A stretch of 64,000 nt of DNA from Minisyncoccota bacterium (GTDB lineage Bacteria; Patescibacteriota; Minisyncoccia; Phycocordibacterales; UBA1006), in contig JAQVEZ010000002.1 of the NCBI GenBank assembly GCA_028697455.1, positions 25,486-89,485 of the forward strand. Reading direction: 5' to 3'. The notes beneath the pieces are model-generated. The model did not search any database, was not told where the DNA came from, and saw nothing but the letters and a program-made list of their open reading frames with translations. Made by a program: the position numbers and the translations under genes. Of the stretch, positions 43,348-63,076 are shown piece after piece (the stretch's first letter is position 1; every line of letters begins with the position of its first letter).

Positions 43348-43995
43348 TTATTTTACATTTTCAGGTCGTTGGATATTCCAAAGCCTTCTTGCTTTGGCTG
43401 CACGTCCCGCTTCAAGTCCTTTGGCCTGGAGTTTCTTTTGGTACGAACGAAGTTGCATTTGATATCGCTCATAAAAAGACTGCGCAAGAAGAGAAAGATT
43501 CTGATACAAAGGTTCAAAAAGTTTCATTTTTTGATTTCCATCCCTGTGGGCATGCTCCCAAAAATACTCTCGATACTGTTTTCCTTTTTCGATATCCATA
43601 TACCCATTACATTCTGGACACAGCGGACGATAATCACATAGAGCCTTTCCTATTTCTGCCCAAGCAATAACTCTCAAGACAAAATATTTCGTTCTATGGA
43701 GACGTGGGCTAGTAAAAACTTTTTTATCTCGTGTACGAACAATAACCCAAGCAGCATCAGATATCGCAGCATTGTTAAACGAAGATAAAATCGTCGTAAG
43801 AACAAGGCATTCATAATGATTGTTGGTGTAAGAAAAACGTATTTCTCTCCCCTCTTGAAAGCGTGGCTCCTCAAGCCCAAGTCGTTGAAAATCCTTTTCA
43901 AGATCTTGATCAGCCATCTGGTGAAATCCCAGAAAAGCGAGTGATCTAAAGAGCTCTTGAATTTGATCCTCTTGAGGTAAAAATTTCTTTGGCAT
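43348..43995 (-). CDS. Hypothetical protein with a CPEC zinc-ribbon-like motif
   Basis: 215 aa; CDYRPLCPECNGYM. Confidence 0.4.
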   Translation of the reverse strand: MPKKFLPQEDQIQELFRSLAFLGFHQMADQDLEKDFQRLGLEEPRFQEGREIRFSYTNNHYECLVLTTILSSFNNAAISDAAWVIVRTRDKKVFTSPRLHRTKYFVLRVIAWAEIGKALCDYRPLCPECNGYMDIEKGKQYREYFWEHAHRDGNQKMKLFEPLYQNLSLLAQSFYERYQMQLRSYQKKLQAKGLEAGRAAKARRLWNIQRPENVK

Positions 43996-44086
43996 ATATA
44001 ATTGTTTTGATTTAACCCCAAGGTACTATCTCGTAGGAAATTGTAAATAGGAGAATAAAAAAAACACCCCCTTAAACAGGAATGCT

Positions 44087-44115
44087 AATACTTTATGTCC
44101 ACCCGCCAGGACTCG
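44087..44115. repeat. Direct-repeat copy of the 3' end of tRNA-Arg plus 10 nt of its downstream flank. The partner copy at 44286..44314 overlaps the tRNA.
   Basis: aatActttatgtccacccgccaggactcg (44087-44115) vs aatTctttatgtccacccgccaggactcg (44286-44314): 28 of 29 nt identical, 199 bp apart. Confidence 0.6.
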
Positions 44116-44296
44116 GTCACCGTTCTGGATTTTTCTTCGAGCAAAGCTCTTGAAAAACCTCATCGCCTCGACCCCGCCGCTTGCGACAAGCACTCGCTAT
44201 CGCTCGTCTTGTATACCGCTTCGCTTTTTTCGAGCCTTGCAGGAAGACTAAAGAAAAAACCACCCATACTGACATATGAGTAGTTAATTCTTTATG

Positions 44297-44368
44297 TCCA
44301 CCCGCCAGGACTCGAACCTGGAATGACGGTTCCGAAGACCGTAGTGATATCCATTTCACCACAGGTGG
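44297..44368 (-). tRNA. tRNA-Arg (anticodon TCG)
   Basis: Minus-strand cloverleaf CCACCTG-TG-GTGAAATGGATATCAC-T-ACGGT CTTCGGA ACCGT-CATT-CCAGG TTCGAGT CCTGG-CGGGTGG-A; anticodon loop CTTCGGA; 72 nt, no encoded CCA. Confidence 0.8.
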
Positions 44369-44626
44369 AATGAATCTAGTATAAATCTATTTTGAGAAAC
44401 CGCAAGAAAAAACTCTAAAAAAGACATGTCCCAAAAAGACACTCATTTAAAGAGAAAGGGCTGTCTCTCCCGTTTTTTACAATTTATAAGCCTATTCAAG
44501 CCTGTGGATAACTTTGGGTATAGAGGGGATAAAAGACAATATTTGTTTTTTGAAAAAAGAAGTCTTTTTGTCCAATAAGCTTGCCTTTTAAGGTTTTCAG
44601 GTGGATTAATGATATAATCGTTTCAT

Positions 44627-45025
44627 ATGAAACAATTCTCCTCAGAAAAGCAGAAAATAGGTCTTTACGGGGAAAATATAGTGTCCTTATGGCTTACAAA
44701 GAACGGCTTTTCTTTAATAGAAAGGAATTATGGGACACGCTATGGAGAAATAGATATTATTGCTCAAAAAGGAGAGGTTCTTTATTTTATCGAGGTCAAA
44801 AGTATTCTTTCTGAAAATACTGATTTTGTTTCCCGTGAAACACAATATAACCCAGCTGAAAACGTTTCACGTGAAAAGATGAAAAGAATGAAGCGAACCA
44901 TTGAGATATTCTTATCAGAAAGAAAAATTCGTGGAGCATTTCAGATCGATGTCTTTGTTGTCTTTATCGACAAAAGAAGTATAAAACACAAGATAAATCG
45001 TATAGAAAACATCATCCTCCCATAG
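44627..45025 (+). CDS. yraN: YraN (UPF0102) family predicted endonuclease
   Basis: GLYGENIVSLWLTKNGFSLIERNYGTRYGEIDIIAQKGEVLYFIEVK, then RMKRTIEIFL, are the YraN signature blocks. Two parS-like palindromes lie inside the 3' part of this CDS. Confidence 0.7.
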   Translation: MKQFSSEKQKIGLYGENIVSLWLTKNGFSLIERNYGTRYGEIDIIAQKGEVLYFIEVKSILSENTDFVSRETQYNPAENVSREKMKRMKRTIEIFLSERKIRGAFQIDVFVVFIDKRSIKHKINRIENIILP

Positions 45026-45534
45026 TTTCATGTGAAACTATGAAGGTAGTGTTTCCCGTGAAACATTAAACGAGGGTATTCTTTAAAAAACCCGTCCTAT
45101 TCGATACCCTTTATTTCTCAAAGCAATACTCGATCTTAAGACCAACAGAGAAAGGCTAAAAAGTTTCATGTGAAACATCCAAAAATACCGAAAGGAATTT
45201 TAAATAAGTTGAAATTTTGTTTCACGTGGAACATATCAAGCGGATGTTTCTCGTGAAACATTCTAAAAAGAACAAAACATTCAAACAAAATGTTTCCCGT
45301 GAAACACTTTAAACAAACACTGTGAAAAAGATGTATCAACAACCCCGTGTTTCATGTGAAACACACCAAGACCAAAAGAGAAGTCCTTGCGGAAAAGCAA
45401 ACCTTGTTTCACATGAAACATAGGCAAGCAATATCTAAGGGAAATAATGATGTTTTCACGTGAAACACTTCTAAGACCAAAAATTAAACAAAGCCCTCCT
45501 TCACGGAGACAGATAATAATGTTTCACATGAAAC
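44827..45534. promoter_or_regulatory. parS: Array of about 12 parS (ParB-binding, centromere-like) 16-bp palindromes
   Basis: Sites at 44827-44842 (TGTTTCCCGTGAAACA), 44863-44878 (CGTTTCACGTGAAAAG, weaker), 45024-45039 (AGTTTCATGTGAAACT), 45050-45065 (TGTTTCCCGTGAAACA), 45162-45177 (AGTTTCATGTGAAACA), 45218-45233 (TGTTTCACGTGGAACA), 45245-45260 (TGTTTCTCGTGAAACA), 45291-45306 (TGTTTCCCGTGAAACA), 45348-45363 (TGTTTCATGTGAAACA), 45405-45420 (TGTTTCACATGAAACA), 45451-45467 (TGTTTTCACGTGAAACA, with a 1-nt insertion), 45519-45534 (TGTTTCACATGAAACA). The established parS consensus is TGTTNCACGTGAAACA. Confidence 0.85.
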
Positions 45535-45552
45535 AAAAAGAAAGACTTATCT

Positions 45553-46053
45553 ATGATATACTCAATACTAATGAGAATTCTAGAAGGAAAAGAACTCCAA
45601 AACGCAGAAAACTGGATGGGGCAAGCAGTCATCTTTGGGAAAAAGGCAAGTTGTAACCGTGCTCACTATGGATCGGTTATTGTTAAAGACGGGGAACTTA
45701 TCGGAGGTGGCTTTAACAGCCCTCCTCAAGATAAAGAATCTCAACGTAAATGCTCATATTCAAAAGGCGAGTATCACAAGAAGGTCACCGATAAAACCTG
45801 CTGTATTCATGCTGTACAACGTGCAATTATGGATGCCCTAAGAAAAAACCCAGATAAATTACCTGGATCAAGGCTTTATTTTATTCGACTTGATGATGCT
45901 GATGAAATTTCTTATGCGGGGAAACCTTACTGCACAATCTGTAGTAAAATGGCTCTTGATGCTGGTATCAAGGAATTTGTTCTTTGGCACGAAGAAGGGA
46001 TTGCTGTTTATGATACCGAAGAATATAATCTCTTGTCCTATCAATACCAGTAA
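45553..46053 (+). CDS. CMP/dCMP-deaminase-fold protein, with the catalytic Glu position occupied by Val
   Basis: CCIHAVQRAI...PYCTICSKMALDAGIKEF resembles the HxE...PCxxC zinc-binding signature, but reads H-A-V instead of H-A-E. Confidence 0.5.
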   Translation: MIYSILMRILEGKELQNAENWMGQAVIFGKKASCNRAHYGSVIVKDGELIGGGFNSPPQDKESQRKCSYSKGEYHKKVTDKTCCIHAVQRAIMDALRKNPDKLPGSRLYFIRLDDADEISYAGKPYCTICSKMALDAGIKEFVLWHEEGIAVYDTEEYNLLSYQYQ

Positions 46054-46096: not shown

Positions 46097-46169
46097 TCGG
46101 GGTGTGGTGTAACGGCTAACATGCTTGTTTTGGGTACAAGTGACTCCGGGTTCGAATCCCGGCTCCCCG
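46097..46169 (+). tRNA. tRNA-Pro (anticodon TGG)
   Basis: CGGGGTG-TG-GTGTAACGGCTAACA-TGCTTG TTTTGGG TACAAGT (anticodon loop TTTGGGT)-GACT-CCGGG TTCGAAT CCCGG-CTCCCCG-A; followed by a hairpin terminator (AAACATCAGATAA...TTATTTGATGTTT). Confidence 0.85.
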
Positions 46170-46367
46170 ACAGAATTTAAACATCAGATAATTATTTTAT
46201 TTGATGTTTTTATTTTGCCAGAAAGGAGATGGGATTCGAAAAAAGTCGCCTGCGAAGCCTGATGTTTGAGGCAACGAAAACATCAGTAGGCGACGGCGGG
46301 GTTGAGCGAATGAGATTATATTAAGCCTTGAAAAAGCGAAAATATAATCCATGAGGGTGACCGAACT

Positions 46368-46386
46368 CGGCTCCCCAACAAAATTT
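46368..46386. repeat. Imperfect direct-repeat copy of the tRNA-Pro 3' end (partner copy at 46159..46177, within the tRNA and its flank)
   Basis: cggctccccAacaAaattt vs cggctccccGacaGaattt (17 of 19 identical), 209 bp apart. In both this and the tRNA-Arg case the copy is preceded by GGTGACCGA. Confidence 0.5.
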
Positions 46387-49781: not shown

Positions 49782-49884
49782 AAAAGGTAAATAATACTTC
49801 TTAGTATAGAAAAATAGAAACTTTTTTCAAGAGATGCTCTTTATTAATGACATATTTTAAGGGATCATGTTATACTTTAAGCGT

Positions 49885-52869
49885 ATGAAAAAATTTTTTA
49901 TCTTATTTATTTTTGTTTTTTCTTTGAGTTTATTCACCCCACAGAAAACCGAAGCCCTTTTTGATGTTGGGAGCTTAATACTCGTTGCAAAAGAATACGG
50001 AATGGATACCCTCACGACTATTATCAACTCACGTATTATGGATAAACTCGTGAGTGATACGGTTAACTGGGCAAATGGTGGTTTTGACGGAGAGCCTGGC
50101 TTCATCAACAACTGGGAAGATTATCTCAAGGGGACTGAACAAGATGTCTTTATTGGAGCTTTTAGTGTTGCCGAAAAAGCCACAAGCTCTTATATACAAA
50201 ACTTCTGTAACCTTGATTGTTCCGGAAACAGCCCTGAAAATATCCAAGCTGATTATGAAGAATGTCTTGCTGGTGGTGCCCCCGTTGAAACCTGTGATGC
50301 GTATGCTAACGCAGCAAGTGCTGATTACCAGCAATGCATGGCAAATCTCGAGCAAGGAGCGGGTACTTGTCAAATGCTTGATATCGGTGCGCAGGCGCAA
50401 AGTAATTATAACGCATGGAATTCGGGAGAACTTGATTCCTATCGGCTTGCTGCAGAGAGTATTGCCCTCATCGGAGGGCAGCGATTCAACTCCGACCCAC
50501 TCAAAGCGCTTATTGAAGGACAGGGTGAAACCCTTACTAAACTCCTTGGTTCAAAATCTGAAGTAGAGAATTTTAAAAATGACTTCTCTGTTGGGGGAAT
50601 ACGGGGGTGGATTGCTCTAGCTGACCCACACAACTTTCCACTCGGACAATCAACACTTATTGAATCTGCCCTAAGTCAAAAAACAGGAGAGAAGGTTCAA
50701 AATGTTGTAGAAGATTTGCAAACACCAAATAAATTCCTCGACAGAAAATGGTGTCTCGAACGAGATGATGACAACAACTGTACAAAAGAATTTACGGGGA
50801 CTCCAGGAGCTCTTATTGAATCAAAAATAAAATCAACAGCTGATTCTGACAGCGATCGTCTTAATGTTGCCCGAGAACTTTCCGACGTTCTGGCTCGAGC
50901 GCTTGGAAAACTCACCGATGGCTTACTCCAAGCAGGCTTCAATAAGCTTACTCAATCGGGAAGTTCTGGTGCGAGTGCACAACCCTTCCAACCAGCTCAA
51001 TTTTTTACAACAGGATATCAAAATGAATTCGATATTCTTGGTTTAGGAGATCTTTCTCCTTCTGGAAGCCTTCTTGGGGGAGGAACCGGTGGGGGGAATA
51101 CTCAAACACCGATCTTTGATCCCGAGACGGGAACCTTTACACCTCTTCGTGGAGGTGATGGATCTCTTCCTTATATTGGAGGACCCGAAGATGCAGTAAA
51201 TACAAGCTGGAACGAAGGTCCTGAGATTATTATTGATCTTCAGAGTGTTCTCGAAAACTCAATTAATCTTATCCAAGAAGAGCTCACGCTCCTCACAGAG
51301 ACTGAAAAAATCCTCAGAGATGGAAAAGATAATGTGATGAAACTTGATCGTTGTATCCCTGGTCCAAAATTTGGGTGGGAAGACAGGCTTCGAGATAATC
51401 TAAATCTTACTGGAGATAGTAACGACGAAGAATCTGCTTATGACCGACTTGGGCTCCAAGAAACTCGTCGTATGGCAAATGACAATATGGTGAATATCCC
51501 TGGGGCAAGTCAAATGAGAGGAACCGTAAATGCTCTCCTCTCTCAAAATGGGGAAAATCAATTTGAAGAAGTTTCGAATGAACGAAACCGAAAACAAACC
51601 TATCTTGCAATTCTTAAAAACATGAAATCTTCAATCCAACAAGATTTTAATAACTATAAAGGAGCTATTGATTCACATCTTGTTATCTTTGAAGAGGACT
51701 GGAATAAACTCTCTGATACCGAGAAAATCGCGCTCTTCTCTATCCCCGAACGAGATGAGAATGGTGATATCATTTATGTTCCCGTTGAGGTAGGGAGCTC
51801 GGGAACTATTGTCGTTAATGAAAACCAAGAACGTCCTCTCTATATTATGGAGAAATACTATCTCTTTAAACCAGGAGAAACTCCAGCATCTGTTTTTGCA
51901 AATAATCCTGATGCCGTCAAAAAAGCCGTCTTGAGTTATTCATGGGATCTCTGGCAAAGAAAGAAGGGGGAAGAGCCAGCAAGTGGAACAACCCCAAATG
52001 GAGTAACCCAAAAATCAAACCTTCGCTATCAATATTATGCCATGTCAAAATATCTCACCACAGAGTCTGATATCCTTGATGCAGAAATGAAAAAAGATGA
52101 AGTGACTCAGAGCAATAAAACCATTATTGATCTTCTTCATGACTGTATGCAGCTAAAATTATATGCACTTGGATATTCTGATGGGAATGGTGAAAATACA
52201 GAAATGTGGAAACGCCTAGACCAGACCTTGTCCCAGGAACCTTCACGATCTCTTGGAATGCTTATTGGAGGAATGAGTGTTGAGAGGGCTGATCATGGAA
52301 GTACTGCTTACCAACTCAATGTGGACAATGCTCGTACCGATCAGCAAATAAAAAATTATCTGCTCCAAGAAAAAGCCAAACAAGAAAACAACCAACCAAG
52401 TAATTTTAAGACTTCAATAATTACTAATGGTGTTGAAGAAAGTATTCTTGGTTTTGAAGAAACAACTATTAGCTGGGAGGAAGTAGCTCATTACGGACCA
52501 CCAGGGCACAACCCCTACGGATCTCCTGATGGTGACGGAAATATAACCTTGAGTCCGAGCCAAACAAGAAAAAAATACTTTGATGATTTTTATGAAAAAG
52601 ATGAAGATCTCTGGCAACCCTATTATAAATATTCAAATGGTATTGCAGAGATAGACCCAGAAAGAGCTGTTGCAAGACTCTATCAGTTCGATTATATGAC
52701 AATGGGATGGCCACGAGGGGGAAATGGGAAAGGAACACTCTATTGTAGAGTAGTGACCTCATTCGATGCACGGGGATGGCATGGAGCTCAAAATCTCCCA
52801 AAATGCTACAAAGATTGGTACAGTACGTCAAATATTACCTATGACCTTGCGTTGATGAATATTCGATAA
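49885..52869 (+). CDS. Large secreted Cys-containing protein, hypothetical; first gene of the surface/T4SS-like gene block
   Basis: Signal peptide MKKFFILFIFVFSLSLFTPQKTEA; start at ATG 49885 with a TATACT box 8 nt upstream; about 995 aa; followed by terminator AAGCCttcgGGCTTTTTT. Confidence 0.55.
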   Translation: MKKFFILFIFVFSLSLFTPQKTEALFDVGSLILVAKEYGMDTLTTIINSRIMDKLVSDTVNWANGGFDGEPGFINNWEDYLKGTEQDVFIGAFSVAEKATSSYIQNFCNLDCSGNSPENIQADYEECLAGGAPVETCDAYANAASADYQQCMANLEQGAGTCQMLDIGAQAQSNYNAWNSGELDSYRLAAESIALIGGQRFNSDPLKALIEGQGETLTKLLGSKSEVENFKNDFSVGGIRGWIALADPHNFPLGQSTLIESALSQKTGEKVQNVVEDLQTPNKFLDRKWCLERDDDNNCTKEFTGTPGALIESKIKSTADSDSDRLNVARELSDVLARALGKLTDGLLQAGFNKLTQSGSSGASAQPFQPAQFFTTGYQNEFDILGLGDLSPSGSLLGGGTGGGNTQTPIFDPETGTFTPLRGGDGSLPYIGGPEDAVNTSWNEGPEIIIDLQSVLENSINLIQEELTLLTETEKILRDGKDNVMKLDRCIPGPKFGWEDRLRDNLNLTGDSNDEESAYDRLGLQETRRMANDNMVNIPGASQMRGTVNALLSQNGENQFEEVSNERNRKQTYLAILKNMKSSIQQDFNNYKGAIDSHLVIFEEDWNKLSDTEKIALFSIPERDENGDIIYVPVEVGSSGTIVVNENQERPLYIMEKYYLFKPGETPASVFANNPDAVKKAVLSYSWDLWQRKKGEEPASGTTPNGVTQKSNLRYQYYAMSKYLTTESDILDAEMKKDEVTQSNKTIIDLLHDCMQLKLYALGYSDGNGENTEMWKRLDQTLSQEPSRSLGMLIGGMSVERADHGSTAYQLNVDNARTDQQIKNYLLQEKAKQENNQPSNFKTSIITNGVEESILGFEETTISWEEVAHYGPPGHNPYGSPDGDGNITLSPSQTRKKYFDDFYEKDEDLWQPYYKYSNGIAEIDPERAVARLYQFDYMTMGWPRGGNGKGTLYCRVVTSFDARGWHGAQNLPKCYKDWYSTSNITYDLALMNIR

Positions 52870-52930
52870 AAGCCTTCGGGCTTTTTTCTTTTACAGAAAA
52901 GAAAAATACGATATGATTAAAGGTAGTTAT

Positions 52931-55357
52931 ATGAAATCTTTTTTAAGAAAATTCTTTCTTGGGCTTATTGTTGCACAGGCTCTTTTTCTTACTCCTTTTT
53001 CTGTTGAATTAAAAGTAAATATTCCAAAAACAGAAAATTCTCTTTTTGCTGTTCAGGAAGAAAAAAGCTCACAATCTCTTGTTGAAATATCTCCCGTATT
53101 ACATACAGCAAATGCACTTTACGGTGGTGGCTGTGATGGGGGCAGCCCCACAACATGGGGGGAATGTATTCTTTCGGGGATACTTACTTTCTATCATTAT
53201 CTGTTCTTTACAACTACTCAGATTCTCGCTGCTATTGCCGCCTATTTTATGGACGTAATTATCAAATTCTCAATCAGCAGTAGTTTTTATCGAGGAATTG
53301 GAATTATCGAAGTTGGTTGGGAGATCTTACGAGACCTTTCAAATATCATCTTTCTCTTTGCCCTTCTCTATATTGCCTTTCGTTTTGCGATTAATGGGAT
53401 AAAAGATGGTCAAGCAAAAAAGAGTCTCATCAATGTTATTGTTGCAGCCCTCGTTGTCAACTTTAGTCTTTTTATTTGTTATTTCCTCATTGACGCATCG
53501 AATCTCTTTGCGCATGTATTTTATAACAGAATAACAACCGAAGCCTCTATATACCCAACTAATAATGGAGCGGGGCAAGAAGGATTAGCGACGGTTCTTA
53601 ATGATATTAAATCCCCAGCGACAGCCTTTCTTGCAGCTATCAACCCGCAACGACTTCTCTTAACAGATGCTGATATCGCAACTAACGGAGGGATGATCAA
53701 AATCCTTTCTATGATCATGGGGATGGCAATTGTTAATGGTATTGCGATTTGGGTATTTTTGTCGGTTGCACTTCTTTTCTTAACGAGAATTTTGGGGCTT
53801 ATTATTCTCTCGTTTTTATCTCCTCTCGCTTTTTCGAGTCTCGCCATCCCAGAGATGAAGAAACAAAAATACGTTGGATTTGATGATTGGTTAAATAATT
53901 TTCTGAGAATGTCTTTTGCTGCGCCAATTTTTACCTTCTTTTTATGGGTAGCAACAAAATTTGCAAGTAATGAAGGGGTGATAGGAACAATCCAAAGAAA
54001 CTCCGGCGGGGATTGGATTTTGGATATGCTCAATGTCTTTCTGGTAATGGCGCTCATTGCAGGAATACTCGTTATGAGCAAGAAAATAACACAAGACCTT
54101 GCAGGAAACTTCTCAAAACAAATCACCGGAATGATCGGAAAAGCTGTTGCAGGAACAGCAGCTGTCGGGGCGCTTGCTGTTGCAGCTCCTGTGGCAGGGG
54201 TAGGAATGCTGGCACGTGCAGGAGCTGGAGTAACCTCTGCAACGGGGGGCCTTGCAAGGGGTGCACGAGCTCTCAACATGACTGGAGCTGCTGATAGATT
54301 ACAAAAAGCACAGGAGAAATTAAAGAGCAATAGATTTGGAACAACGGCAGCAAATGCTGGGAGGGCTCTTATGTCGACAAAACTCAATGTCACCAAAATT
54401 CCTGGCTTCAGCCAGCTTGCGGGAAAAGAGCTCACCAGCATCGTCGGTAAAGTACCTGGGGTTGGGGTTTCTGCGCGGGAGCTTGAACGAAAGGCTGTTC
54501 TTTATGGAATGAGAAATGTTCCTCTCTATAGAGACAAGGAAGGCAAGTGGAAACGTAACTTCCTTACAGGAAGACAACATCAAGAAGCTGAGCTCGCTTA
54601 CGATAAAGAAAAAGAGAAGATCCGAGGAGAACGTGGAAAATGGCAAGAAGATCTCAAAAAAGAACGAGATAAATTTGAACAAGAAAAGGTTGTCAATGCA
54701 ATGCGCGATAAGGTTAGACGAGATACAAAACTCGATCCAGAGCGAAAAGCAGAACGAGATGCTCACAATGCTGTTCTTGAAAACTCAGACCTTGTCAAAA
54801 AAGAAACCGAAGCGATGGATGCTCTCAAGGGAGAATTGGCAAACCTTACTGCTCAACTTAATGCAGCCAAAGGTTCTGGAAATGATAATCTAGCAGATAC
54901 TATTCAAATGGAGATCGATGGGGTGAAAGTTAGAAGAGCTGCTCGAGAAAAAGGAATTGAGCTTTCTGGTGGAAATGCAGAAAACATGATTACTGATAAG
55001 GTTAATGGGGGTATGAGTCGAAAAGAAGCCGTTAAGGCAATTATAGAAGAGAACAAGGATGGTTTCGGAACAACTACTACTTATCATGCTAACGGTGGAG
55101 TTGATGTGACAGCGGAGACACTCCAGGGAAGACATCAACACGAGAAAAACCTTCTTAATGAAGAAGAAAGAAATCTTATTAGGGCAGAAATTACAAATCT
55201 CAGAACTCAGGCTACCGCAGCAAGGACCGCCGGAAGAGATGATGAGGCAGATACGCTCAACAAAAAGGCTTCTCATCTTTCACAAAAAATGGAAAGTATG
55301 CTTACCGATTCTTCAAAGATTGATGAAGCAGCAAATAAAGCATCGAACAAAAAATAA
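52931..55357 (+). CDS. VirB6/TrbL/ConG-like polytopic membrane protein with a long Ala/Gly-rich coiled-coil C-terminal domain
   Basis: Signal/TM1 then about 7 further TM helices in the first 380 aa (for example ILAAIAAYFMDVII, LINVIVAALVVNFSLFICYFLI, MIKILSMIMGMAIVNGIAIWVFLSVALLFL), followed by a roughly 430-aa hydrophilic coiled-coil region. The size (about 810 aa) and topology match Gram-positive VirB6 homologues such as ConG and TcpH. Confidence 0.5.
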   Translation: MKSFLRKFFLGLIVAQALFLTPFSVELKVNIPKTENSLFAVQEEKSSQSLVEISPVLHTANALYGGGCDGGSPTTWGECILSGILTFYHYLFFTTTQILAAIAAYFMDVIIKFSISSSFYRGIGIIEVGWEILRDLSNIIFLFALLYIAFRFAINGIKDGQAKKSLINVIVAALVVNFSLFICYFLIDASNLFAHVFYNRITTEASIYPTNNGAGQEGLATVLNDIKSPATAFLAAINPQRLLLTDADIATNGGMIKILSMIMGMAIVNGIAIWVFLSVALLFLTRILGLIILSFLSPLAFSSLAIPEMKKQKYVGFDDWLNNFLRMSFAAPIFTFFLWVATKFASNEGVIGTIQRNSGGDWILDMLNVFLVMALIAGILVMSKKITQDLAGNFSKQITGMIGKAVAGTAAVGALAVAAPVAGVGMLARAGAGVTSATGGLARGARALNMTGAADRLQKAQEKLKSNRFGTTAANAGRALMSTKLNVTKIPGFSQLAGKELTSIVGKVPGVGVSARELERKAVLYGMRNVPLYRDKEGKWKRNFLTGRQHQEAELAYDKEKEKIRGERGKWQEDLKKERDKFEQEKVVNAMRDKVRRDTKLDPERKAERDAHNAVLENSDLVKKETEAMDALKGELANLTAQLNAAKGSGNDNLADTIQMEIDGVKVRRAAREKGIELSGGNAENMITDKVNGGMSRKEAVKAIIEENKDGFGTTTTYHANGGVDVTAETLQGRHQHEKNLLNEEERNLIRAEITNLRTQATAARTAGRDDEADTLNKKASHLSQKMESMLTDSSKIDEAANKASNKK

Positions 55358-55408
55358 AAAACCTTCGCGGTTTTTTATTTTTAAAAAATTGCTATACTAA
55401 AACAAGTT

Positions 55409-56260
55409 ATGGAATACGACCGATCAGAAATCGAAAAAATCATTTCCGAACTTCCCAATCATATCCGACAGGCCGTTGATGCTATTGACTGGGGAGAGAT
55501 CACCAAAGAAATGCAAGAAAAGTTCAAACTCCATCTTGATGATATTGCTGCCTTTCGTGAACAATCAATGCTTGTCATTGTGGGAAAGCTTTCTTCAGAC
55601 AGATATGCAGATGCCCTTATCTATGAAATTGGTCTAAGCAAAGAGTTCGCTCATGAACTTGTTGATTTTGCAGACAAAAGAATCTTTCAGAAATTACAAA
55701 ACAATGCCTTCGGGAGAAACCAAGAACCAGAAGAAAAAATCCCTGCGTATACCTCACAATCAACAAACGATCCTTATTCAATTATTGATATCAATGATCA
55801 AAATGAGGGGAAAAATATGCCGAGCTTTTCTCCTTCTTTTAATGCAAACCTCAAAAAAGACTTAGCTGATCAGCTTTCTTCATGGCAAGTGCAAAGTGGA
55901 AAAGAAGATATTCTTAGCTCTAATAGCGGTACCGCAGGCTCATTCAAACTTGCTCCAAGGGAAAAACCTGCTGACCCAAATGCCTATCGAGAACCTATCG
56001 AAGAATCTGACCTTCGTGGAATTCCTTCTATGGACTCCCTTGAACGGTCTTCTCTCGGTCAGGCATTACAACAGCCTGAGCAGATTTTTTCATCCCCTCT
56101 TGAAGCCCAGGAAAAACGTGAAGATGTTCCAAACCTTGAAGAAGATTTACTTTCTCAAGCCTTCATTCCTAAAAATGATATCTTAAACCTTGATGATGAA
56201 AACGATATCCTTTCAGAAGAAAATGAGGGAAGTCACCTTAAAAACCTAAAGAATATATAA
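55409..56260 (+). CDS. Acidic hypothetical protein
   Basis: 283 aa, strongly acidic C-terminal half; TATACT box immediately upstream. Confidence 0.4.
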   Translation: MEYDRSEIEKIISELPNHIRQAVDAIDWGEITKEMQEKFKLHLDDIAAFREQSMLVIVGKLSSDRYADALIYEIGLSKEFAHELVDFADKRIFQKLQNNAFGRNQEPEEKIPAYTSQSTNDPYSIIDINDQNEGKNMPSFSPSFNANLKKDLADQLSSWQVQSGKEDILSSNSGTAGSFKLAPREKPADPNAYREPIEESDLRGIPSMDSLERSSLGQALQQPEQIFSSPLEAQEKREDVPNLEEDLLSQAFIPKNDILNLDDENDILSEENEGSHLKNLKNI

Positions 56261-56268
56261 TTACCCTT

Positions 56269-56691
56269 ATGAGATTCGAAGTTCCACAATTTATTAATGT
56301 TCAAGATAAACTTTTTGGACCTTTTACCTTCCAAGAAGCTCTTTATCTTGTCGGTGGAGGAGGACTTGTCTTTGTTCTTTATAAACTCCTTCCTTTTTCT
56401 TTTGCGATATTTTTTGGTGTTCCTGTTATTGCTTTTACGCTAGCGCTCATCTTTTATAAACCAAATGGGAGACCGTTTATCAATCTTGTTGAGGCTTTTA
56501 TTCTCTATTCTTTTAGTAAAAAATTCTACCTTTGGAGACAAAAAGAAAAAGGAGAAGGTCAGATACAGGAAATCACTCAAGTACATGCTCCCGTCCTCCG
56601 TGAGGGAGAAATTCCTGAAGAAGAGGTTCACCAAAAGATATCAAACCTTGCTTGGAGTCTCGATGTGCTTGATTTTGATGAAAATAAATAG
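56269..56691 (+). CDS. PrgI/VirB3-like small two-TM membrane protein
   Basis: 140 aa; N-terminal MRFEVPQFINVQDKLFGPFTFQEALYLVGGGGLVFVLYKLLP and a second TM segment IFFGVPVIAFTLALIFY. The architecture matches the PrgI family found directly upstream of VirB4 in Gram-positive T4SS. Confidence 0.45.
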   Translation: MRFEVPQFINVQDKLFGPFTFQEALYLVGGGGLVFVLYKLLPFSFAIFFGVPVIAFTLALIFYKPNGRPFINLVEAFILYSFSKKFYLWRQKEKGEGQIQEITQVHAPVLREGEIPEEEVHQKISNLAWSLDVLDFDENK

Positions 56692-56727
56692 ATATTCCTC
56701 AAAAGATAGGATATACTTTATATAATT

Positions 56728-57390
56728 ATGGCGGACACAAAAACTTACACGGGAAATAGAACTCAGGATTTTGTTCCTATCAAAGAAATACGTGATGGTA
56801 TTGTTGTTCTTGAGGACGGAACCCTTCGTGCAATTCTTATGGCTTCGGCGGTTAATATTGCACTCAAGTCAATCGAAGAGCAGCAAGCAACGATTATGCA
56901 GTTTCAAGGATTTCTTAATTCTATCGAATTCCCGGTGCAGATATCAGTACAGTCTAGACGACAAGATATCAAACCCTATCTCATGACGCTCGAAAGACGT
57001 GTACAACAACAAGAAGAAGAGCTTTTGCGCTTACAAACAAAAGAATATATTGAATTCATACGATGGTTTACTGACTCTGTTAATATTATGTCAAAGAAAT
57101 TTTATGTTGTTATTCCTTATTCTGGAGGGCTTCTCAATGCTCAAACAACACAAAAAAAAGGTTTCTTCTCAACACTCTTTGGTGGGCAGAACAAAAAACA
57201 ACAAGAACTTGGTTCTTCTGCCTTTGAAGAGCAGCGAAGTCAGCTTGAACAAAGAGTTGCTATTGTAAAATCAGGTCTTTCTCGTTTTGGGGTACGTTCT
57301 GAACAGCTCAATACTGAACAGGCAATTGAGGTATATTATAATATTTTTAACCCTGGAGATTCTCACAGGAATATTCCCCAGCTTATCTAA
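56728..57390 (+). CDS. VirB4/TraE-family N-terminal-domain-only protein (no ATPase domain)
   Basis: DFVPIKEIRDGIVVLEDGTLRAIL...SAVNIALKSIEEQQATIMQFQGFL...PVQISVQSRRQDIKPYLMTLERRV...FYVVIPYS resembles, from recalled patterns, the conserved N-terminal module of Gram-positive VirB4 proteins (PrgJ/TcpF/ConE-type). The ORF stops after 220 aa with no Walker motifs. Confidence 0.4.
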   Translation: MADTKTYTGNRTQDFVPIKEIRDGIVVLEDGTLRAILMASAVNIALKSIEEQQATIMQFQGFLNSIEFPVQISVQSRRQDIKPYLMTLERRVQQQEEELLRLQTKEYIEFIRWFTDSVNIMSKKFYVVIPYSGGLLNAQTTQKKGFFSTLFGGQNKKQQELGSSAFEEQRSQLEQRVAIVKSGLSRFGVRSEQLNTEQAIEVYYNIFNPGDSHRNIPQLI

Positions 57391-57449
57391 ACTCGTCTTT
57401 GAGTTTTTTTGATTATGAGCAATTCCAAAAATACCTTATAATAACAAAG

Positions 57450-58493
57450 ATGATAGAACGAAAAAAAATTACATATTTTTTTCTCTTTTTTGTTCTTGTG
57501 GGAGGTTTTTTTGTTCTCTCGGAAAAAGTATCTGCACAAACTGAGGCACAGATCCAACAACTTCAAAACTTCCAACTCTATTCCGCTGATGATATTTTCA
57601 TTGATATTGTTCCAGAAGTTCCTGGTCCCAACCAAGAAGTAACTCTCCGAGCAAATAGCTATAGTTTTAACCTTAATAATTATTACATTAGTTGGTTCAA
57701 AGATGGGGTTCGCCAAAATGCAGGGTTTGGACAACGAGAGTATAAATTTACAACAGGAGAAATCGGAAAGGTCACTACAGTGGTGGCAGCTGTTGAGTTT
57801 GAGGGACAGGTTTTTCGAAAAGAAATGCGTTTTGCCCCTTCAGAGGTAAATCTTTTGTGGGAGGTTATCAACGGGTACGCCCCTCCTTTTTATAAAGGAA
57901 AGGTTCTCCCTCTCCCACAATCTGAGGTACGCGTCACTGCTATTCCACAAACCTTTCTTATCAAACCTTCAGATGCACGAAACCTTATTTATTATTGGGA
58001 TCAAAATTATGAAAGAAAAGTTGCTTCATCCGGTTTTGGGAAACAATCATTTCAATTTACGGCTGGGGTTCTTTCTCAAATGGAAAAAATTTCAGTAACC
58101 GCCAATGACAGGAGAGAGGCTTCTTTTGCAAAAGAAACCCTTGATATCCCCGTAAGTTCCTTTACTCCAAAAATTCTTTTCTATGAAATTGATGAAAACG
58201 GGCGAATCCTTACCAATAAAGCTCTCAATACCAACACACAAATCTCAGGAGATACCCTCAAGCTAGCCTTTCATCCTCTTTTTATGTCAACACCAAAGAA
58301 AAACTTTACTGATCTTTTTGTTGACTGGTCTATTAATGATATCCATCAAGCTCCTCAAAATTTCAACAAACAAAACGAGCTCTATATTAGCTCTGGTGGA
58401 GAATCTGGTGCCGTCCAGATAGGAATAAATCTCGAAGGAATTAGTAAGCTCCTTCAGAAAGGTTCTCAAAAAATTGAATTACACTTTCAATAA
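57450..58493 (+). CDS. Secreted hypothetical protein
   Basis: Signal peptide MIERKKITYFFLFFVLVGGFFVLSEKVSA; about 347 aa; terminator AAAACCAAAtactTTTGGTTTTTT follows. Confidence 0.45.
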   Translation: MIERKKITYFFLFFVLVGGFFVLSEKVSAQTEAQIQQLQNFQLYSADDIFIDIVPEVPGPNQEVTLRANSYSFNLNNYYISWFKDGVRQNAGFGQREYKFTTGEIGKVTTVVAAVEFEGQVFRKEMRFAPSEVNLLWEVINGYAPPFYKGKVLPLPQSEVRVTAIPQTFLIKPSDARNLIYYWDQNYERKVASSGFGKQSFQFTAGVLSQMEKISVTANDRREASFAKETLDIPVSSFTPKILFYEIDENGRILTNKALNTNTQISGDTLKLAFHPLFMSTPKKNFTDLFVDWSINDIHQAPQNFNKQNELYISSGGESGAVQIGINLEGISKLLQKGSQKIELHFQ

Positions 58494-58540: not shown

Positions 58541-60134
58541 AATATCGTATACTAGAAATATTACTACTATGAAAAAAGCCTATTTAACACTTTCTTTGGC
58601 AGTTATTCTTTTGGGAGGATTTTTAATGAACCCTTCTTGGGGAGAAGCACAAAATCAATGCACTGTTTCAAGTGCTACTTTTACCCAACCTGAAGATAAT
58701 TCTTTTGATAAAAAGAAGTCTACTTTAAATATCAAAACTAACGGTTGTGAATATACAAACCTTTCTGTGGTATTAAAATATTTTGCATCAGATGATTATA
58801 TATGGACCCATCAAATAAAAAACCTTCCAGGGATTTTAAAGGTTGCAAGTGATGGGGATCTCACTCTTGAAATAACTCTGGGAGAAGACCCCTGTTGGTC
58901 TGCAAACAAGGACCCTTATGGATTTCCTTGCGTTACTTTTATTGAGGTATATCAAGGAGGGAATCTCAAATTTAGTGGAAACGAAACCTACGGAAGTGAA
59001 TTTATTACCAAAGAAAAAGTAAAACTTGGTAAAAACGATCCAAATGTTCTTAAGGATTATCGTAATAAAGGTGTCCTTATTGGAGAATGTTCAAGTACTC
59101 TCTTTTGTAAAGAAGGAAGCAGCAATGTTTGGGAGTTAAGTAAGTTACTCAAAGGAACTTCACAGCAAACACAAAGCTGTATCATCAATCCCAATGATAT
59201 CCAATATGGAGAGCTTCCTTTTGAAAAAGACAGCAACGGAAACTCTTTCCCCACTATCACAAACGCCAATCTTACTCTCAATATCAATACTACAAACTGT
59301 AAGGGATTACCTATCACTCTAAGTATTTATGGTACTGAGGGGAAGGTTGATATCAAGGTCCCAGAAAAAGGCGCCGTAACTGAAATTACCAAAACTGCTG
59401 TAGGAGACGAGCTCAAATTTTCTTTCAAAACCCATGACGAAGAATGTTCTATACAAAAAAATCCTCATTGTCAGTTTGGGACAACAATCACCCAAAACGG
59501 AACTCCCATTGTAAGTACTCAAAACCTTTTAGAAACTATTGTGCCTGGAGTAGCAATTGATTGGAATTACTATCGAAACAATGGAGTCATTTTTGCTTAC
59601 TGTTCCTCAGGTCTTGGTGGTGTCTATTACTGTGAGCGTCTTGGGGCAAATGATTGGACACTTCTCAAGGTTTCAGGAAGTGCAGGGGAAGATACGCCCG
59701 AAGTATTTGAAACGATTACCCCAAAATTCGACCCCGAAAGCCCTTGTTTTGTCCAAGAGCTCAATGGGGGAAATGGGGGATATGATGAAGATTGTTACGA
59801 ACTCCTTGCTCCTGTTCCAGGATTAAAAGGAGCTACTGATCCTCTAGGAAATAATCGCTGGAGTATTAATCTTAAGAATTTTCAAATAGGAGACTATGTT
59901 AATTCACTCTTTTCTATTGCCTTAGGAATTCTAACGCTTCTTGCGGTGATTATGATTGTGATTGCTGGGGTACAGTATATGACCATTGAAAGTTTCCAGG
60001 GTAAATCTGATGCCAAAAGTAGAATTACTGGTGCTCTGACAGGGCTTCTTCTTGCCTTGAGTATTTATATTATTTTGGGAACCATTAACCCCGATCTTCT
60101 TCAGGTAAACTTTGGAAGTAACATTGAGGAGGTG
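58541..60134. repeat. 1594-bp perfect direct repeat (partner copy 60811..62404) covering the promoter, 5' UTR and first 1566 nt of the two hydrolase genes
   Basis: Both copies begin with aatatcgtatactagaaatattactactATGaaaaaagcc and are identical by eye up to ...acattgaggaggtg. They then diverge (aagttggagggg vs gcattagaggga). Confidence 0.9.
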
Positions 60135-60788
60135 AAGTTGGAGGGGATGCAACTATCACCAGAGCAATTGGCTGCGTATGGAAACGATTATAATACCGCA
60201 ATGCAACAAGGAACAGAGATTCCTCCTGATAATCAAATGTTCCAAGATGAAGGGTTTATTGCATATCTCTATCACCAACAAGGAGAAGGCGGTGCTCCTT
60301 CTATTATCTATTCCGCACAACAAGGATGGAGTAAAATTGAAAAAACTCCTTGGGCATCAAACAAATTAAAAGCTGCTGACGTCAACAAAAATATGAATAA
60401 CAACTGGCCAAGCGGCGTCAACCGAGGAAACGGGTCTCCTTCAGACTTTCTCAGGGTTTGGTGGGTGGTATGGAACCAAAGAAAGACAGAAATAAGTCTC
60501 ATACCAAAAAATGTTGCAAACATTGTTACCCAAGTTGCAAATGAAGAAAAGATTGAAGTGAACCGATTCAAAACAGTGTGTATGATAGAATCGAGTTGTA
60601 ATAATCCAAGCATCAAAAACGACCAAGGGTACAAAGGCCTTTTCCAGTTTAGTGATGACACCTTTGCTTCTCAGAAAAAACCTGGCTGTGATAGTATTTT
60701 TGATGCCTATTGTAATAGTTATGCGGGAGCACGTTATATGAAATATAATCTTTCTCGCTGGAATAAGCATAAAGCTAAGATCTTTTGA
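58569..60788 (+). CDS. Secreted membrane-anchored cell-wall hydrolase, variant 1: shared 520-aa N-terminal module plus C-terminal SLT lytic transglycosylase domain
   Basis: Signal peptide; Cys-containing N-terminal domain; hydrophobic helical hairpin LFSIALGILTLLAVIMIVIAGVQYM...ITGALTGLLLALSIYIILG; C-terminal CMIESSCNNPSIKNDQGYKGLFQFSDDTFAS carries the E-S...GLxQ lytic transglycosylase signature. Confidence 0.6.
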   Translation: MKKAYLTLSLAVILLGGFLMNPSWGEAQNQCTVSSATFTQPEDNSFDKKKSTLNIKTNGCEYTNLSVVLKYFASDDYIWTHQIKNLPGILKVASDGDLTLEITLGEDPCWSANKDPYGFPCVTFIEVYQGGNLKFSGNETYGSEFITKEKVKLGKNDPNVLKDYRNKGVLIGECSSTLFCKEGSSNVWELSKLLKGTSQQTQSCIINPNDIQYGELPFEKDSNGNSFPTITNANLTLNINTTNCKGLPITLSIYGTEGKVDIKVPEKGAVTEITKTAVGDELKFSFKTHDEECSIQKNPHCQFGTTITQNGTPIVSTQNLLETIVPGVAIDWNYYRNNGVIFAYCSSGLGGVYYCERLGANDWTLLKVSGSAGEDTPEVFETITPKFDPESPCFVQELNGGNGGYDEDCYELLAPVPGLKGATDPLGNNRWSINLKNFQIGDYVNSLFSIALGILTLLAVIMIVIAGVQYMTIESFQGKSDAKSRITGALTGLLLALSIYIILGTINPDLLQVNFGSNIEEVKLEGMQLSPEQLAAYGNDYNTAMQQGTEIPPDNQMFQDEGFIAYLYHQQGEGGAPSIIYSAQQGWSKIEKTPWASNKLKAADVNKNMNNNWPSGVNRGNGSPSDFLRVWWVVWNQRKTEISLIPKNVANIVTQVANEEKIEVNRFKTVCMIESSCNNPSIKNDQGYKGLFQFSDDTFASQKKPGCDSIFDAYCNSYAGARYMKYNLSRWNKHKAKIF

Positions 60789-60838: not shown

Positions 60839-63076
60839 ATGAAAAAAGCCTATTTAACACTTTCTTTGGCAGTTATTCTTTTGGGAGGATTTTTAATGAA
60901 CCCTTCTTGGGGAGAAGCACAAAATCAATGCACTGTTTCAAGTGCTACTTTTACCCAACCTGAAGATAATTCTTTTGATAAAAAGAAGTCTACTTTAAAT
61001 ATCAAAACTAACGGTTGTGAATATACAAACCTTTCTGTGGTATTAAAATATTTTGCATCAGATGATTATATATGGACCCATCAAATAAAAAACCTTCCAG
61101 GGATTTTAAAGGTTGCAAGTGATGGGGATCTCACTCTTGAAATAACTCTGGGAGAAGACCCCTGTTGGTCTGCAAACAAGGACCCTTATGGATTTCCTTG
61201 CGTTACTTTTATTGAGGTATATCAAGGAGGGAATCTCAAATTTAGTGGAAACGAAACCTACGGAAGTGAATTTATTACCAAAGAAAAAGTAAAACTTGGT
61301 AAAAACGATCCAAATGTTCTTAAGGATTATCGTAATAAAGGTGTCCTTATTGGAGAATGTTCAAGTACTCTCTTTTGTAAAGAAGGAAGCAGCAATGTTT
61401 GGGAGTTAAGTAAGTTACTCAAAGGAACTTCACAGCAAACACAAAGCTGTATCATCAATCCCAATGATATCCAATATGGAGAGCTTCCTTTTGAAAAAGA
61501 CAGCAACGGAAACTCTTTCCCCACTATCACAAACGCCAATCTTACTCTCAATATCAATACTACAAACTGTAAGGGATTACCTATCACTCTAAGTATTTAT
61601 GGTACTGAGGGGAAGGTTGATATCAAGGTCCCAGAAAAAGGCGCCGTAACTGAAATTACCAAAACTGCTGTAGGAGACGAGCTCAAATTTTCTTTCAAAA
61701 CCCATGACGAAGAATGTTCTATACAAAAAAATCCTCATTGTCAGTTTGGGACAACAATCACCCAAAACGGAACTCCCATTGTAAGTACTCAAAACCTTTT
61801 AGAAACTATTGTGCCTGGAGTAGCAATTGATTGGAATTACTATCGAAACAATGGAGTCATTTTTGCTTACTGTTCCTCAGGTCTTGGTGGTGTCTATTAC
61901 TGTGAGCGTCTTGGGGCAAATGATTGGACACTTCTCAAGGTTTCAGGAAGTGCAGGGGAAGATACGCCCGAAGTATTTGAAACGATTACCCCAAAATTCG
62001 ACCCCGAAAGCCCTTGTTTTGTCCAAGAGCTCAATGGGGGAAATGGGGGATATGATGAAGATTGTTACGAACTCCTTGCTCCTGTTCCAGGATTAAAAGG
62101 AGCTACTGATCCTCTAGGAAATAATCGCTGGAGTATTAATCTTAAGAATTTTCAAATAGGAGACTATGTTAATTCACTCTTTTCTATTGCCTTAGGAATT
62201 CTAACGCTTCTTGCGGTGATTATGATTGTGATTGCTGGGGTACAGTATATGACCATTGAAAGTTTCCAGGGTAAATCTGATGCCAAAAGTAGAATTACTG
62301 GTGCTCTGACAGGGCTTCTTCTTGCCTTGAGTATTTATATTATTTTGGGAACCATTAACCCCGATCTTCTTCAGGTAAACTTTGGAAGTAACATTGAGGA
62401 GGTGGCATTAGAGGGATATGACCCCCCAACATCTCCTTATTTTTCAAGCGGCTCAACGGGGTCAAATTACAACATAAATGCAGGGTCAGTACCAACAGGA
62501 AGTGCGAGTCAGTATTTAGCAAATTCAGGGGTATACTGTCCAAAACAAGGAGGGAGGACGGTCGTAAAACAGGTTGCTGAAAGTTTCCAGGAAAAAGTTA
62601 GCTATCGCTATGGAGGACGGTTCAATGATTTAGGGCAATCTTTTCCGAGTCACTGGAAGGGTTCTGGAAAAGGATATAATAAAAACACATCATGTCAGGT
62701 AAGCTCTGGGACTCTTTGCTTAGATTGTTCGGCTTTTGTCGCCACTGTTCTCTATTGTTCTGGAATAACAGAAAAACCAGAGATTGGAACAACTACTCAA
62801 ATTTTTCAGAATTCTGAAAAAATAAACCAACTTGATAAAAAAAATGGGGTTGTTAATGGAGTACCTCTTCAGCCAGGAGACCTTATAGGAGGAAAAGGTC
62901 ATGTTGGTATTTATATAGGAAATGGAATGGTAGCAGAATCAACAAGCGATAAGGGGGGTCGGAACCTAAACAAAGCAATCAAAATTCGAGGAATGGATGG
63001 AAATTGGTTTGGTATAGGGAAAAAAGGTGGTTATGTTGTACGACTAAATAAGCTATCTGGGGTTAAACTTAATTAA
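60839..63076 (+). CDS. Secreted membrane-anchored cell-wall hydrolase, variant 2: identical N-terminal module plus C-terminal NlpC/P60-type peptidase domain
   Basis: First 522 residues identical to 58569..60788; C-terminal SSGTLCLDCSAFVATVLYCSG...LQPGDLIGGKGHVGIYIGNGMVAES has the catalytic Cys and His arrangement of NlpC/P60. Confidence 0.6.
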   Translation: MKKAYLTLSLAVILLGGFLMNPSWGEAQNQCTVSSATFTQPEDNSFDKKKSTLNIKTNGCEYTNLSVVLKYFASDDYIWTHQIKNLPGILKVASDGDLTLEITLGEDPCWSANKDPYGFPCVTFIEVYQGGNLKFSGNETYGSEFITKEKVKLGKNDPNVLKDYRNKGVLIGECSSTLFCKEGSSNVWELSKLLKGTSQQTQSCIINPNDIQYGELPFEKDSNGNSFPTITNANLTLNINTTNCKGLPITLSIYGTEGKVDIKVPEKGAVTEITKTAVGDELKFSFKTHDEECSIQKNPHCQFGTTITQNGTPIVSTQNLLETIVPGVAIDWNYYRNNGVIFAYCSSGLGGVYYCERLGANDWTLLKVSGSAGEDTPEVFETITPKFDPESPCFVQELNGGNGGYDEDCYELLAPVPGLKGATDPLGNNRWSINLKNFQIGDYVNSLFSIALGILTLLAVIMIVIAGVQYMTIESFQGKSDAKSRITGALTGLLLALSIYIILGTINPDLLQVNFGSNIEEVALEGYDPPTSPYFSSGSTGSNYNINAGSVPTGSASQYLANSGVYCPKQGGRTVVKQVAESFQEKVSYRYGGRFNDLGQSFPSHWKGSGKGYNKNTSCQVSSGTLCLDCSAFVATVLYCSGITEKPEIGTTTQIFQNSEKINQLDKKNGVVNGVPLQPGDLIGGKGHVGIYIGNGMVAESTSDKGGRNLNKAIKIRGMDGNWFGIGKKGGYVVRLNKLSGVKLN

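Follow-up and report, generated by a model that had tools for sequence, protein, structure and literature searches.

On a 64,000-nucleotide stretch of contig JAQVEZ010000002.1 (GenBank assembly GCA_028697455.1, positions 25,486 to 89,485; hereafter the window), which is chromosomal DNA of an uncultured, Paceibacterota-like bacterium of the Patescibacteria or candidate phyla radiation (CPR), we have identified a dense array of 13 palindromes resembling parS, the binding site of the partition protein ParB. Judged by its sequence, the element is real, conserved and selected, and the likeliest reading is that of an unusually compact parS centromere near the origin, physically coupled to a cluster of DnaA boxes. 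We consider it probable that the array acts as the chromosomal, multi-site ParB-loading centromere of this bacterium. The assignment of the window agrees with its trigger factor (Tig) and YraN proteins, whose best named relatives are in metagenome-assembled genomes (MAGs) filed as ‘Candidatus Pacebacteria/Paceibacterota’, ‘Minisyncoccia’ and ‘Patescibacteria group’.

Composition and density of the array

When the window was searched with the parS sequence TGTTTCACGTGAAACA, with up to three mismatches allowed, 13 matching 16-mers were found at 44619–45535 and none in the rest of the 64 kb (Table 1). They include all twelve sites that an initial annotation of this DNA had claimed at 44827–45534, to which site 1 adds a thirteenth. 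Eight of the sites differ from the search sequence at one position, two at two positions and three at three. The comparison with shuffled sequence that the initial annotation had called for bears out the clustering: dinucleotide-preserving shuffles of the window gave a mean of 0.42 matches and a maximum of 4, and none of 100 reached 13. Each of the 13 sites is a 16-bp inverted repeat fitting the parS consensus TGTTNCACGTGAAACA with at most three mismatches. The GTTTC/GAAAC arms are almost constant, both among the window sites and among 37 sites of relatives, and the variable part is the central YR (pyrimidine–purine), which gives the centres CACGTG, CCCGTG, CATGTG, CACATG, CATATG and CTCGTG. 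The sites do not conform to the Noc-binding-site consensus ATTTCCCGGGAAAT, as the outer G/C of GTTTC...GAAAC and the central CA/TG are of parS type; one CCCG half, the point of comparison with Noc sites, is present in three sites only.

From site 1 to site 13 the start-to-start spacings are 208, 36, 161, 26, 112, 56, 27, 46, 57, 57, 47 and 68 bp. Within 44827–45535 the gaps between sites are 10–145 bp, a wider range than the 10–97 bp first reported. Overall, the density amounts to 13 sites in 0.92 kb, or ten in 0.51 kb. Tandem Repeats Finder detected no tandem unit in the array, whose spacers are unlike one another, and tandem duplication as its source was ruled out on that ground. The nine short spacings (26–68 bp) between 44827 and 45535 all lie close to n+0.45 helical turns (Rayleigh R=0.92–0.94 at 10.2–10.5 bp; none of 20,000 random draws was as high), and neighbouring sites phased in this way would sit on opposite faces of the helix. 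This phasing carries no weight in our reading, because relatives lack it (R=0.47).

Dense clusters of parS are known elsewhere. When one genome per species was scanned for triplets of sites within ~130 bp, the result was at least 120 loci from many phyla, including those of Collinsella, Streptomyces, Lachnospiraceae and Planctomycetes. Among the matches listed, most loci have exactly three sites, and the largest have 10 (L050; we refer to loci by L numbers), 8 (L032) and then 7; a ParB open reading frame (ORF) lies in the same 8-kb chunk in 74 of the 120 listed, which makes the pattern a mark of ParB centromeres. In Collinsella, the genomes of dozens of species have a three-parS cluster with a near-constant footprint of ~92 bp, which is, from its sequence, a putative conserved triple-parS centromere of that genus. 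In Myxococcus xanthus, 22 parS sites in ~3 kb, ~4 kb upstream of parAB, form a cluster that is bound as a whole by ParB (PMC3899335). The view of chromosomal parS sites as invariably few and scattered, from which the initial annotation had argued, is thus too strong in the light of this cluster and of the triplets in at least 120 species genomes. The CPR array resembles that of M. xanthus in consisting of many canonical 16-bp parS sites, irregularly spaced, on one short chromosomal segment, which in the CPR bacterium is a putative part of the origin region. It differs in a site density roughly double that of M. xanthus (14 per kb for the whole array and ~20 per kb in its intergenic part, against ~7 per kb), in lacking parAB for 44 kb on its left and 19 kb on its right, in belonging to a very small, AT-rich genome where it directly abuts a block of DnaA boxes, and in reaching into a coding sequence (CDS) and over a start codon. 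Pseudomonas aeruginosa has parS1–4 within 16 kb of oriC, one of the four sites being enough (PMC4368675), and Corynebacterium glutamicum has 10 parS sites (PMC7083940). The sites of these two species and of Bacillus subtilis share with the CPR array the same consensus, a frequent location within genes, redundancy and a position near the origin (a putative one in the CPR array), but are distributed over kilobases to tens of kilobases, whereas here 13 occupy 0.9 kb. Because dense chromosomal parS clusters are already known, with 22 sites in 3 kb in Myxococcus, we do not regard the array as a new kind of object; taken as a centromere, it is an unusually compact form of a known type of bacterial centromere, at the extreme of the density sampled.

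A second class of comparison is provided by plasmid-type centromeres. The sopC centromere of F is built of 12 units of 43 bp in tandem, and every unit contains a 16-bp inverted repeat. Similar regularity was seen in L032 (eight sites directly upstream of parA-parB at a spacing of 46–47 bp), L050 (ten sites in a 55-bp tandem arrangement, likewise upstream of parAB) and L148 (eight sites upstream of parAB, with five consecutive spacings of 38 bp). What these arrays share with that of the window is the packing of roughly twelve ParB-type palindromes into under 1 kb as a single centromere, a putative one in the window. Theirs, however, are regular tandem units, usually beside parAB on a mobile replicon, whereas the CPR array is irregular, has unrelated spacers and no adjacent parAB, and stands in a conserved chromosomal context. 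Neither of the two marks of a plasmid or phage iteron-type centromere, regular tandem units and adjacent parAB on a mobile replicon, is therefore found here, and the proposed likeness to a plasmid iteron array falls with the lack of a regular unit in the Tandem Repeats Finder analysis.

The confinement of the palindromes to one place bears on whether they are a repetitive extragenic palindromic (REP)-like, dispersed or selfish repeat, or an array of structured RNAs, unrelated to partition, which we hold to be extremely improbable. Transcribed into RNA, the intergenic region does fold at z=−8 relative to shuffled sequence, but this is not evidence for an RNA, because many mutually complementary palindromes give such a score trivially. 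An RNA element was rejected on this ground and because Rfam gave no matches in the search apart from tRNAs. The dispersed REP-like repeat, which the initial annotation had named as the observation that would overturn a centromere, is contradicted by the absence of any copy outside 44619–45535 in the 64 kb and by the near absence of copies outside the homologous locus in relatives; the conservation of sites inside a protein-coding frame, described below, also argues against a repeat.

Conservation of the array in related lineages

Relatives whose YraN and Tig proteins are 46–57% and ~50–57% identical, respectively, to those of the window have the same gene order and carry 2–8 sites at the same locus. 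There are seven sites in L122 (GCA_030433255.1) and in L126 (a 611-kb JGI contig), two in L128, eight in L132, at least five in L129, where the array runs off the contig end, and 3–5 in L153. L031, L130 and L131 have three sites at up to three mismatches and a fourth palindrome (GGTTTCATATGAAACC). The sites stand at the orthologous locus in seven relatives’ loci, and almost none lie outside it. Two further parS-like sites (TGTTTCACGTGATACC, TGTTTCACGTGATACA) were noticed within the FAD-oxidase CDS of L031 (6013–6098) and L130 (3773–3858), 1.4 kb from the main array of that relative.

Conservation of position extends into the yraN gene. A parS site covers the yraN start (TTTCAyATGAAAC, encoding Met-Lys) in the window and in L126, L128, L129, L132 and L150, and an intragenic site lies at the same position, 208 bp past site 1, in the window and in L128, L132, L153 and L150. 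As the initial annotation had recognized, two window sites (2 and 3) produce a repeated VSRE peptide in the YraN sequence. In an alignment of homologues, the parS-encoded peptide V[S/T]xE[T/K] occurs at three fixed YraN positions, and it is enriched among the homologues ranked nearest to the window protein, which are mostly at least 45% identical.

The sister lineage L150–L152, with a YraN that is 94% identical, keeps 12 of the 13 sites one-to-one. In the intergenic part, alignment with L150 showed 148 of 158 site positions to be identical (93.7%), as against 300 of 369 spacer positions (81.3%; Fisher P=1.6×10⁻⁴). The palindromes are kept even where the spacers drop to ~60% identity, with the centre sometimes changed from CATGTG to CACATG. 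Slower evolution of sites than of spacers is the signature of presumptive protein-binding sites under selection.

The overlap with yraN raises the question of whether the array is mainly a device of transcriptional control, with a palindrome-binding repressor (a KorB-like ParB or another protein) acting on yraN and the downstream deaminase gene. Site 1 lies over the yraN start in every yraN-bearing relative with a clear start, and site 13 ends 18 bp before the deaminase ATG, as would suit an operator. Thirteen sites, however, exceed the needs of an operator by far, and promoter-like matches are no commoner than in shuffled sequence. Moreover, in L031 and L130 the array lies directly between tRNA-Pro and tRNA-Arg, together with the DnaA-box block, although neither yraN nor the deaminase gene is present there; the array is therefore independent of yraN. 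We consider control as the main function distinctly unlikely, while noting that a control role and a centromere role are compatible.

The same synteny bears on a possible origin of the array as the partition site, or a relic, of an integrated plasmid, phage or other mobile element. Flanking tRNA genes are common targets of integration, short att-like duplications of tRNA 3′ ends occur nearby, and dense canonical parS triplets were found in 17 IMG/VR contigs (with a maximum of eight sites). Against this, the same housekeeping synteny is kept in relatives in which Tig is only ~50–57% identical, no integrase, rep, parA or parB gene is adjacent, the tRNA-linked duplications fall outside the interval from tRNA-Arg to tRNA-Pro, and composition is not atypical. 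A blastn search with the array gave no match in 72,556 plasmids and one short chance match in 50,697 phages. On the strength of this search and of the conserved synteny (FAD oxidase, tRNA-Arg, yraN, HU, ClpP, Tig), a plasmid or phage origin was rejected, and we regard a mobile source in general as very improbable. Of the three options that the initial annotation had left standing, a compact chromosomal centromere or ParB-loading hub fits the canonical, clustered, conserved and slowly evolving sites, and an integrated or extrachromosomal replicon is unsupported.

ParB, the DnaA-box block and a possible origin

We propose that ParB binds the array because its motif is the pan-bacterial parS sequence and because a chromosomal parB is encoded in 84% of bacterial orders (PMC12704722). 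In the mechanism that we envisage, ParB dimers would recognize each tGTTTCAyrTGAAACa palindrome, bind CTP, close to form a clamp and slide outward to the flanking DNA. With thirteen loading sites in 0.9 kb, the flux of loading would be high and a single dense partition complex would be nucleated, on which ParA and/or SMC would act to separate the sister origins. If the adjoining block of DnaA boxes is oriC, or a cluster lying near oriC, the centromere would be the first DNA to be replicated and segregated. ParB might also affect initiation, as well as expression of yraN, whose start codon lies within a site. We infer that a ParB is present in this genome and binds the sites, that the array functions in segregation and that the origin coincides with the DnaA-box block; ParB binding and oriC status have this standing because neither ParB nor ParA was found in the window that was searched. 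In the library searched, no paper was found that connects parS or ParB with CPR bacteria, Patescibacteria, Saccharibacteria or Parcubacteria.

The DnaA-box block, of 36 bp, lies ~80 bp upstream of site 1 and reads TGTCTTTTATCCCCTCTATACCCAAAGTTATCCACA on the minus strand. It contains a perfect DnaA box at 44503–44511 (minus strand), the one consensus box that had been reported nearby and, by motif scan, the only perfect one in the window, together with two adjoining degenerate DnaA-box-like 9-mers in the same orientation and in register. The block is kept in all relatives examined (L122, L126, L128, L031/L130/L131, L129 and L132) and always adjoins the array. The 85-bp non-coding core that contains it is 98.8% identical to that of L150, against 82–87% for the non-coding flanks. 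A metagenome scan with the block pattern retrieved four contigs, a small sample, all four of which have an adjacent parS array. To the left of 49.8 kb the genes are mostly on the minus strand and to the right of it all are on the plus strand, and the cumulative GC skew has its minimum at 44–51 kb of the window. The locus may thus be described as origin-proximal, beside a conserved DnaA-box cluster which is itself a candidate for oriC.

Two further motifs were noticed around such DnaA boxes. The octamer AAAAGACA occurs three times in the 120 bp upstream of yraN (44419, 44434 and 44531) and 16 times in the whole window. In L122, L126 and L128 its complement TGTCTTTT surrounds the DnaA-box block in either orientation. 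The octamer is a candidate for a second motif bound by protein within the module. In L122 (6906), L124 (6200) and L128 (6181) a perfect DnaA box immediately precedes a terminator-like hairpin, in the intergenic region downstream of a gene of ~865–1,005 aa that diverges from tig. No such hairpin-linked box is present at the equivalent place in the window or in L126.

A number of observations weigh against a ParB-loading, origin-proximal centromere. No site of the 13 matches TGTTTCACGTGAAACA perfectly, three have the centre CCCGTG, and a variable centre may weaken canonical ParB binding. The number of sites ranges from 2 to 13 across the window and its relatives, so that 13 are not required. As the initial annotation had stated, no ParA or ParB was found in the 64-kb window, either by motif scans or with a hidden Markov model (HMM) profile built from 37 ParB ORFs, whose best window match, with filters off, was to a Xer recombinase (E=0.1); the profile gave no matches in the CPR loci retrieved. 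A motif scan of the window found no dnaA gene. The assignment of an origin is weak, with one perfect DnaA box and two degenerate 9-mers, and no clear DnaA-trio or further DnaA boxes were seen at the block. At four-fold sites the coding strand largely determines the GC skew, with a replication component to the left of the array and an ambiguous signal to the right, and as a means of placing the origin this skew was dropped because of the coding-strand bias. The HU, ClpP, Tig and pyrophosphatase genes would be head-on to any fork from 44.5 kb. It is because the skew is ambiguous, these genes are head-on and dnaA is not nearby that we call the locus origin-proximal and not a demonstrated oriC.

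The main alternative is that the palindromes are iteron-like parts of an origin, or sites for a CPR-specific protein other than a canonical ParB, perhaps a diverged ParB/Noc-like or other helix–turn–helix protein, and that they would organize or regulate initiation at the adjacent DnaA boxes instead of serving as a centromere for segregation. The tight linkage of the array to the conserved DnaA-box block throughout the clade would fit such a role, as would the parS-like sites interleaved with or abutting DnaA boxes in L046 and L112 (see below), the lack of a ParB gene in any of the CPR loci retrieved, and the variable centre and Noc-like CCCG half-sites, which suggest altered specificity. However, the arms are identical to those of canonical parS, which ParB reads across phyla, and the same pattern accompanies parB in 74 of 120 other genomes among the matches listed. 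No candidate for another binder was found. A conserved neighbour of the module is a 215-aa protein with a CPxC motif, whose gene (43348–43995, minus strand) separates the FAD oxidase gene from the DnaA-box region. Neither Pfam nor PDB gave a match to this protein, which has no recognizable DNA-binding domain, and it was dropped as an array-binding protein for want of such a match. Weak homologues of it (30% and 19% identity) are encoded at the same position in L122 and L126. We judge a binder other than ParB to be unlikely, and continue to favour a ParB-loading centromere.

DnaA boxes were also found combined with parS clusters in two more, unrelated CPR lineages. In a Parcubacteria MAG contig (JAAZHW010000091.1; L046, 4430–4920), tandem units of ~220 bp, within which the contig ends, each comprise a split parS (TGTTTCAC-N7-GTGAAACA), a DnaA box without mismatch (TTATCCACA) and three canonical parS sites spaced every 52 bp, and are followed by a very A+T-rich stretch. 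This region looks like an origin with built-in centromere repeats. In a Magasanikbacteria MAG (L112, 4000–4260), four one-mismatch DnaA boxes in ~110 bp beside a tRNA gene are followed by three parS sites; an ORF begins within the third of these (ATGGTTTCACGTGAAACG, encoding MVSRET). The pattern is therefore present in three CPR lineages, but the 115 other dense-parS loci sampled, most of them non-CPR, do not show it; in these, the density of DnaA boxes near the triplets is that of the background (0.24 versus 0.27 per kb). It is conceivable, though we advance the idea tentatively and with more doubt than conviction, that the patescibacterial centromere is joined to the DnaA-binding origin region in a single compact cis-module, in which parS arrays abut or are interleaved with DnaA boxes.

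A partial parallel is offered by chromosome II of Vibrio cholerae, which has the initiator RctB, a different parS sequence and one site. There, too, partition and initiator-binding sites lie side by side, suggesting a coupling of segregation with initiation. The two cases differ in initiator, in parS sequence and in number of sites, and in the CPR locus any coupling is only supposed. For V. cholerae, a parS2 site in the origin region and cross-talk of ParB2 with replication control are reported (PMC3141006).

Surroundings of the locus and biological meaning

The coordinates of the array and its neighbours are collected in Table 1. The surrounding genes encode FAD oxidase, CCA-adding enzyme, tRNA-Arg, YraN, deaminase, tRNA-Pro, tRNA-Gly, HU, ClpP, trigger factor and pyrophosphatase, and no partition, replication or mobility genes were found at the locus.

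Table 1. Positions in the window of the parS-like sites and of the features next to them
Feature	Position	Strand	Sequence	Remarks
parS-like site 1	44619–44634		CGTTTCATATGAAACA	Three mismatches; overlaps the yraN ATG (44627)
parS site 2	44827–44842		TGTTTCCCGTGAAACA	Within yraN; encodes FVSRET
parS-like site 3	44863–44878		CGTTTCACGTGAAAAG	Three mismatches; within yraN; encodes NVSREK
parS-like site 4	45024–45039		AGTTTCATGTGAAACT	Three mismatches; overlaps the yraN stop codon; more degraded in L150
parS site 5	45050–45065		TGTTTCCCGTGAAACA	
parS site 6	45162–45177		AGTTTCATGTGAAACA	
parS site 7	45218–45233		TGTTTCACGTGGAACA	
parS site 8	45245–45260		TGTTTCTCGTGAAACA	
parS site 9	45291–45306		TGTTTCCCGTGAAACA	
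parS site 10	45348–45363		TGTTTCATGTGAAACA	Retained in L150 despite diverged spacers around it
parS site 11	45405–45420		TGTTTCACATGAAACA	
parS site 12	45452–45467		GTTTTCACGTGAAACA	
parS site 13	45520–45535		TGTTTCACATGAAACA	Deaminase start codon 18 bp further on
Intergenic body of array	45026–45552			527 bp; sites 5–13 and most of site 4
Conserved non-coding core	44494–44578	−		85 bp; contains the DnaA-box block (44503–44538), then an A+T-rich stretch
yraN	44627–45025	+		UPF0102 family, predicted nuclease; Pfam PF02021, E=2.3e-18; sites 1–3 in or at the CDS
dCMP/cytidine deaminase gene	45553–46053	+		PF00383; right neighbour of the array
tRNA-Arg(TCG)	44296–44368	−		Left boundary of the module; tied to the DnaA-box block in L031 too
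tRNA-Pro(TGG)	46098–46171	+		Right boundary of the module

An insert of ~200 bp follows both tRNA-Arg (44086–44295) and tRNA-Pro (46172–46384). Each closes with a second copy of the 3′ part of its own tRNA, from the T-loop ‘CGA’ to the acceptor end and trailer (44086–44115 repeats 44285–44314, and 46363–46384 repeats 46155–46176), and the two share the internal blocks TCGAAAAAAG, CGGCGGGGTYGAG..ATGAG and AATCCAnGAnGGTGACCGA. They look like copies of a putative miniature element that targets tRNA T-loops and leaves att-like duplications. The internal motif has one copy in each of L150 and L151, probably on the tRNA-Arg side, and one elsewhere in L126; no copies were found in L031, L122, L128 or L153, and there was no Rfam match.

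Farther to the right, a large operon (49867–58493, plus strand) encodes mostly unannotated big proteins and diverges from the tig-side genes. It is syntenic in L122, L124, L126 and L128, and PrgI-like and TraC-like Pfam matches and an NlpC/P60 protein in relatives suggest that an apparatus for type IV secretion or a conjugation-like process is conserved in the clade. Two plus-strand genes beyond it (58569–60788 and 60839–63076, encoding 740 and 746 aa) have identical first 50 residues (MKKAYLTLSLAVILLGG...) and look like a recent tandem duplication of a gene for a secreted or surface protein.

The replication and segregation of the ~1-Mb genomes of CPR bacteria are essentially unstudied, and the locus described here provides a concrete, conserved cis-element which can also serve as a landmark for orienting CPR assemblies. 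Its extreme density, along with the toleration of sites in a reading frame and at a start codon, makes it a natural test case for how the number and spacing of parS sites relate to the loading of ParB-CTP clamps. If centromere and DnaA-binding region do form a single module, in such minimal genomes ParB would load right at the origin, where it could link initiation to segregation, and selection would have been strong enough to overprint parS on the yraN CDS and its start codon. Should the adjacency of DnaA boxes reflect a fused origin–centromere, it would represent a minimal architecture for coupling initiation and segregation, and its interest would be all the greater if this arrangement proves general in CPR bacteria.

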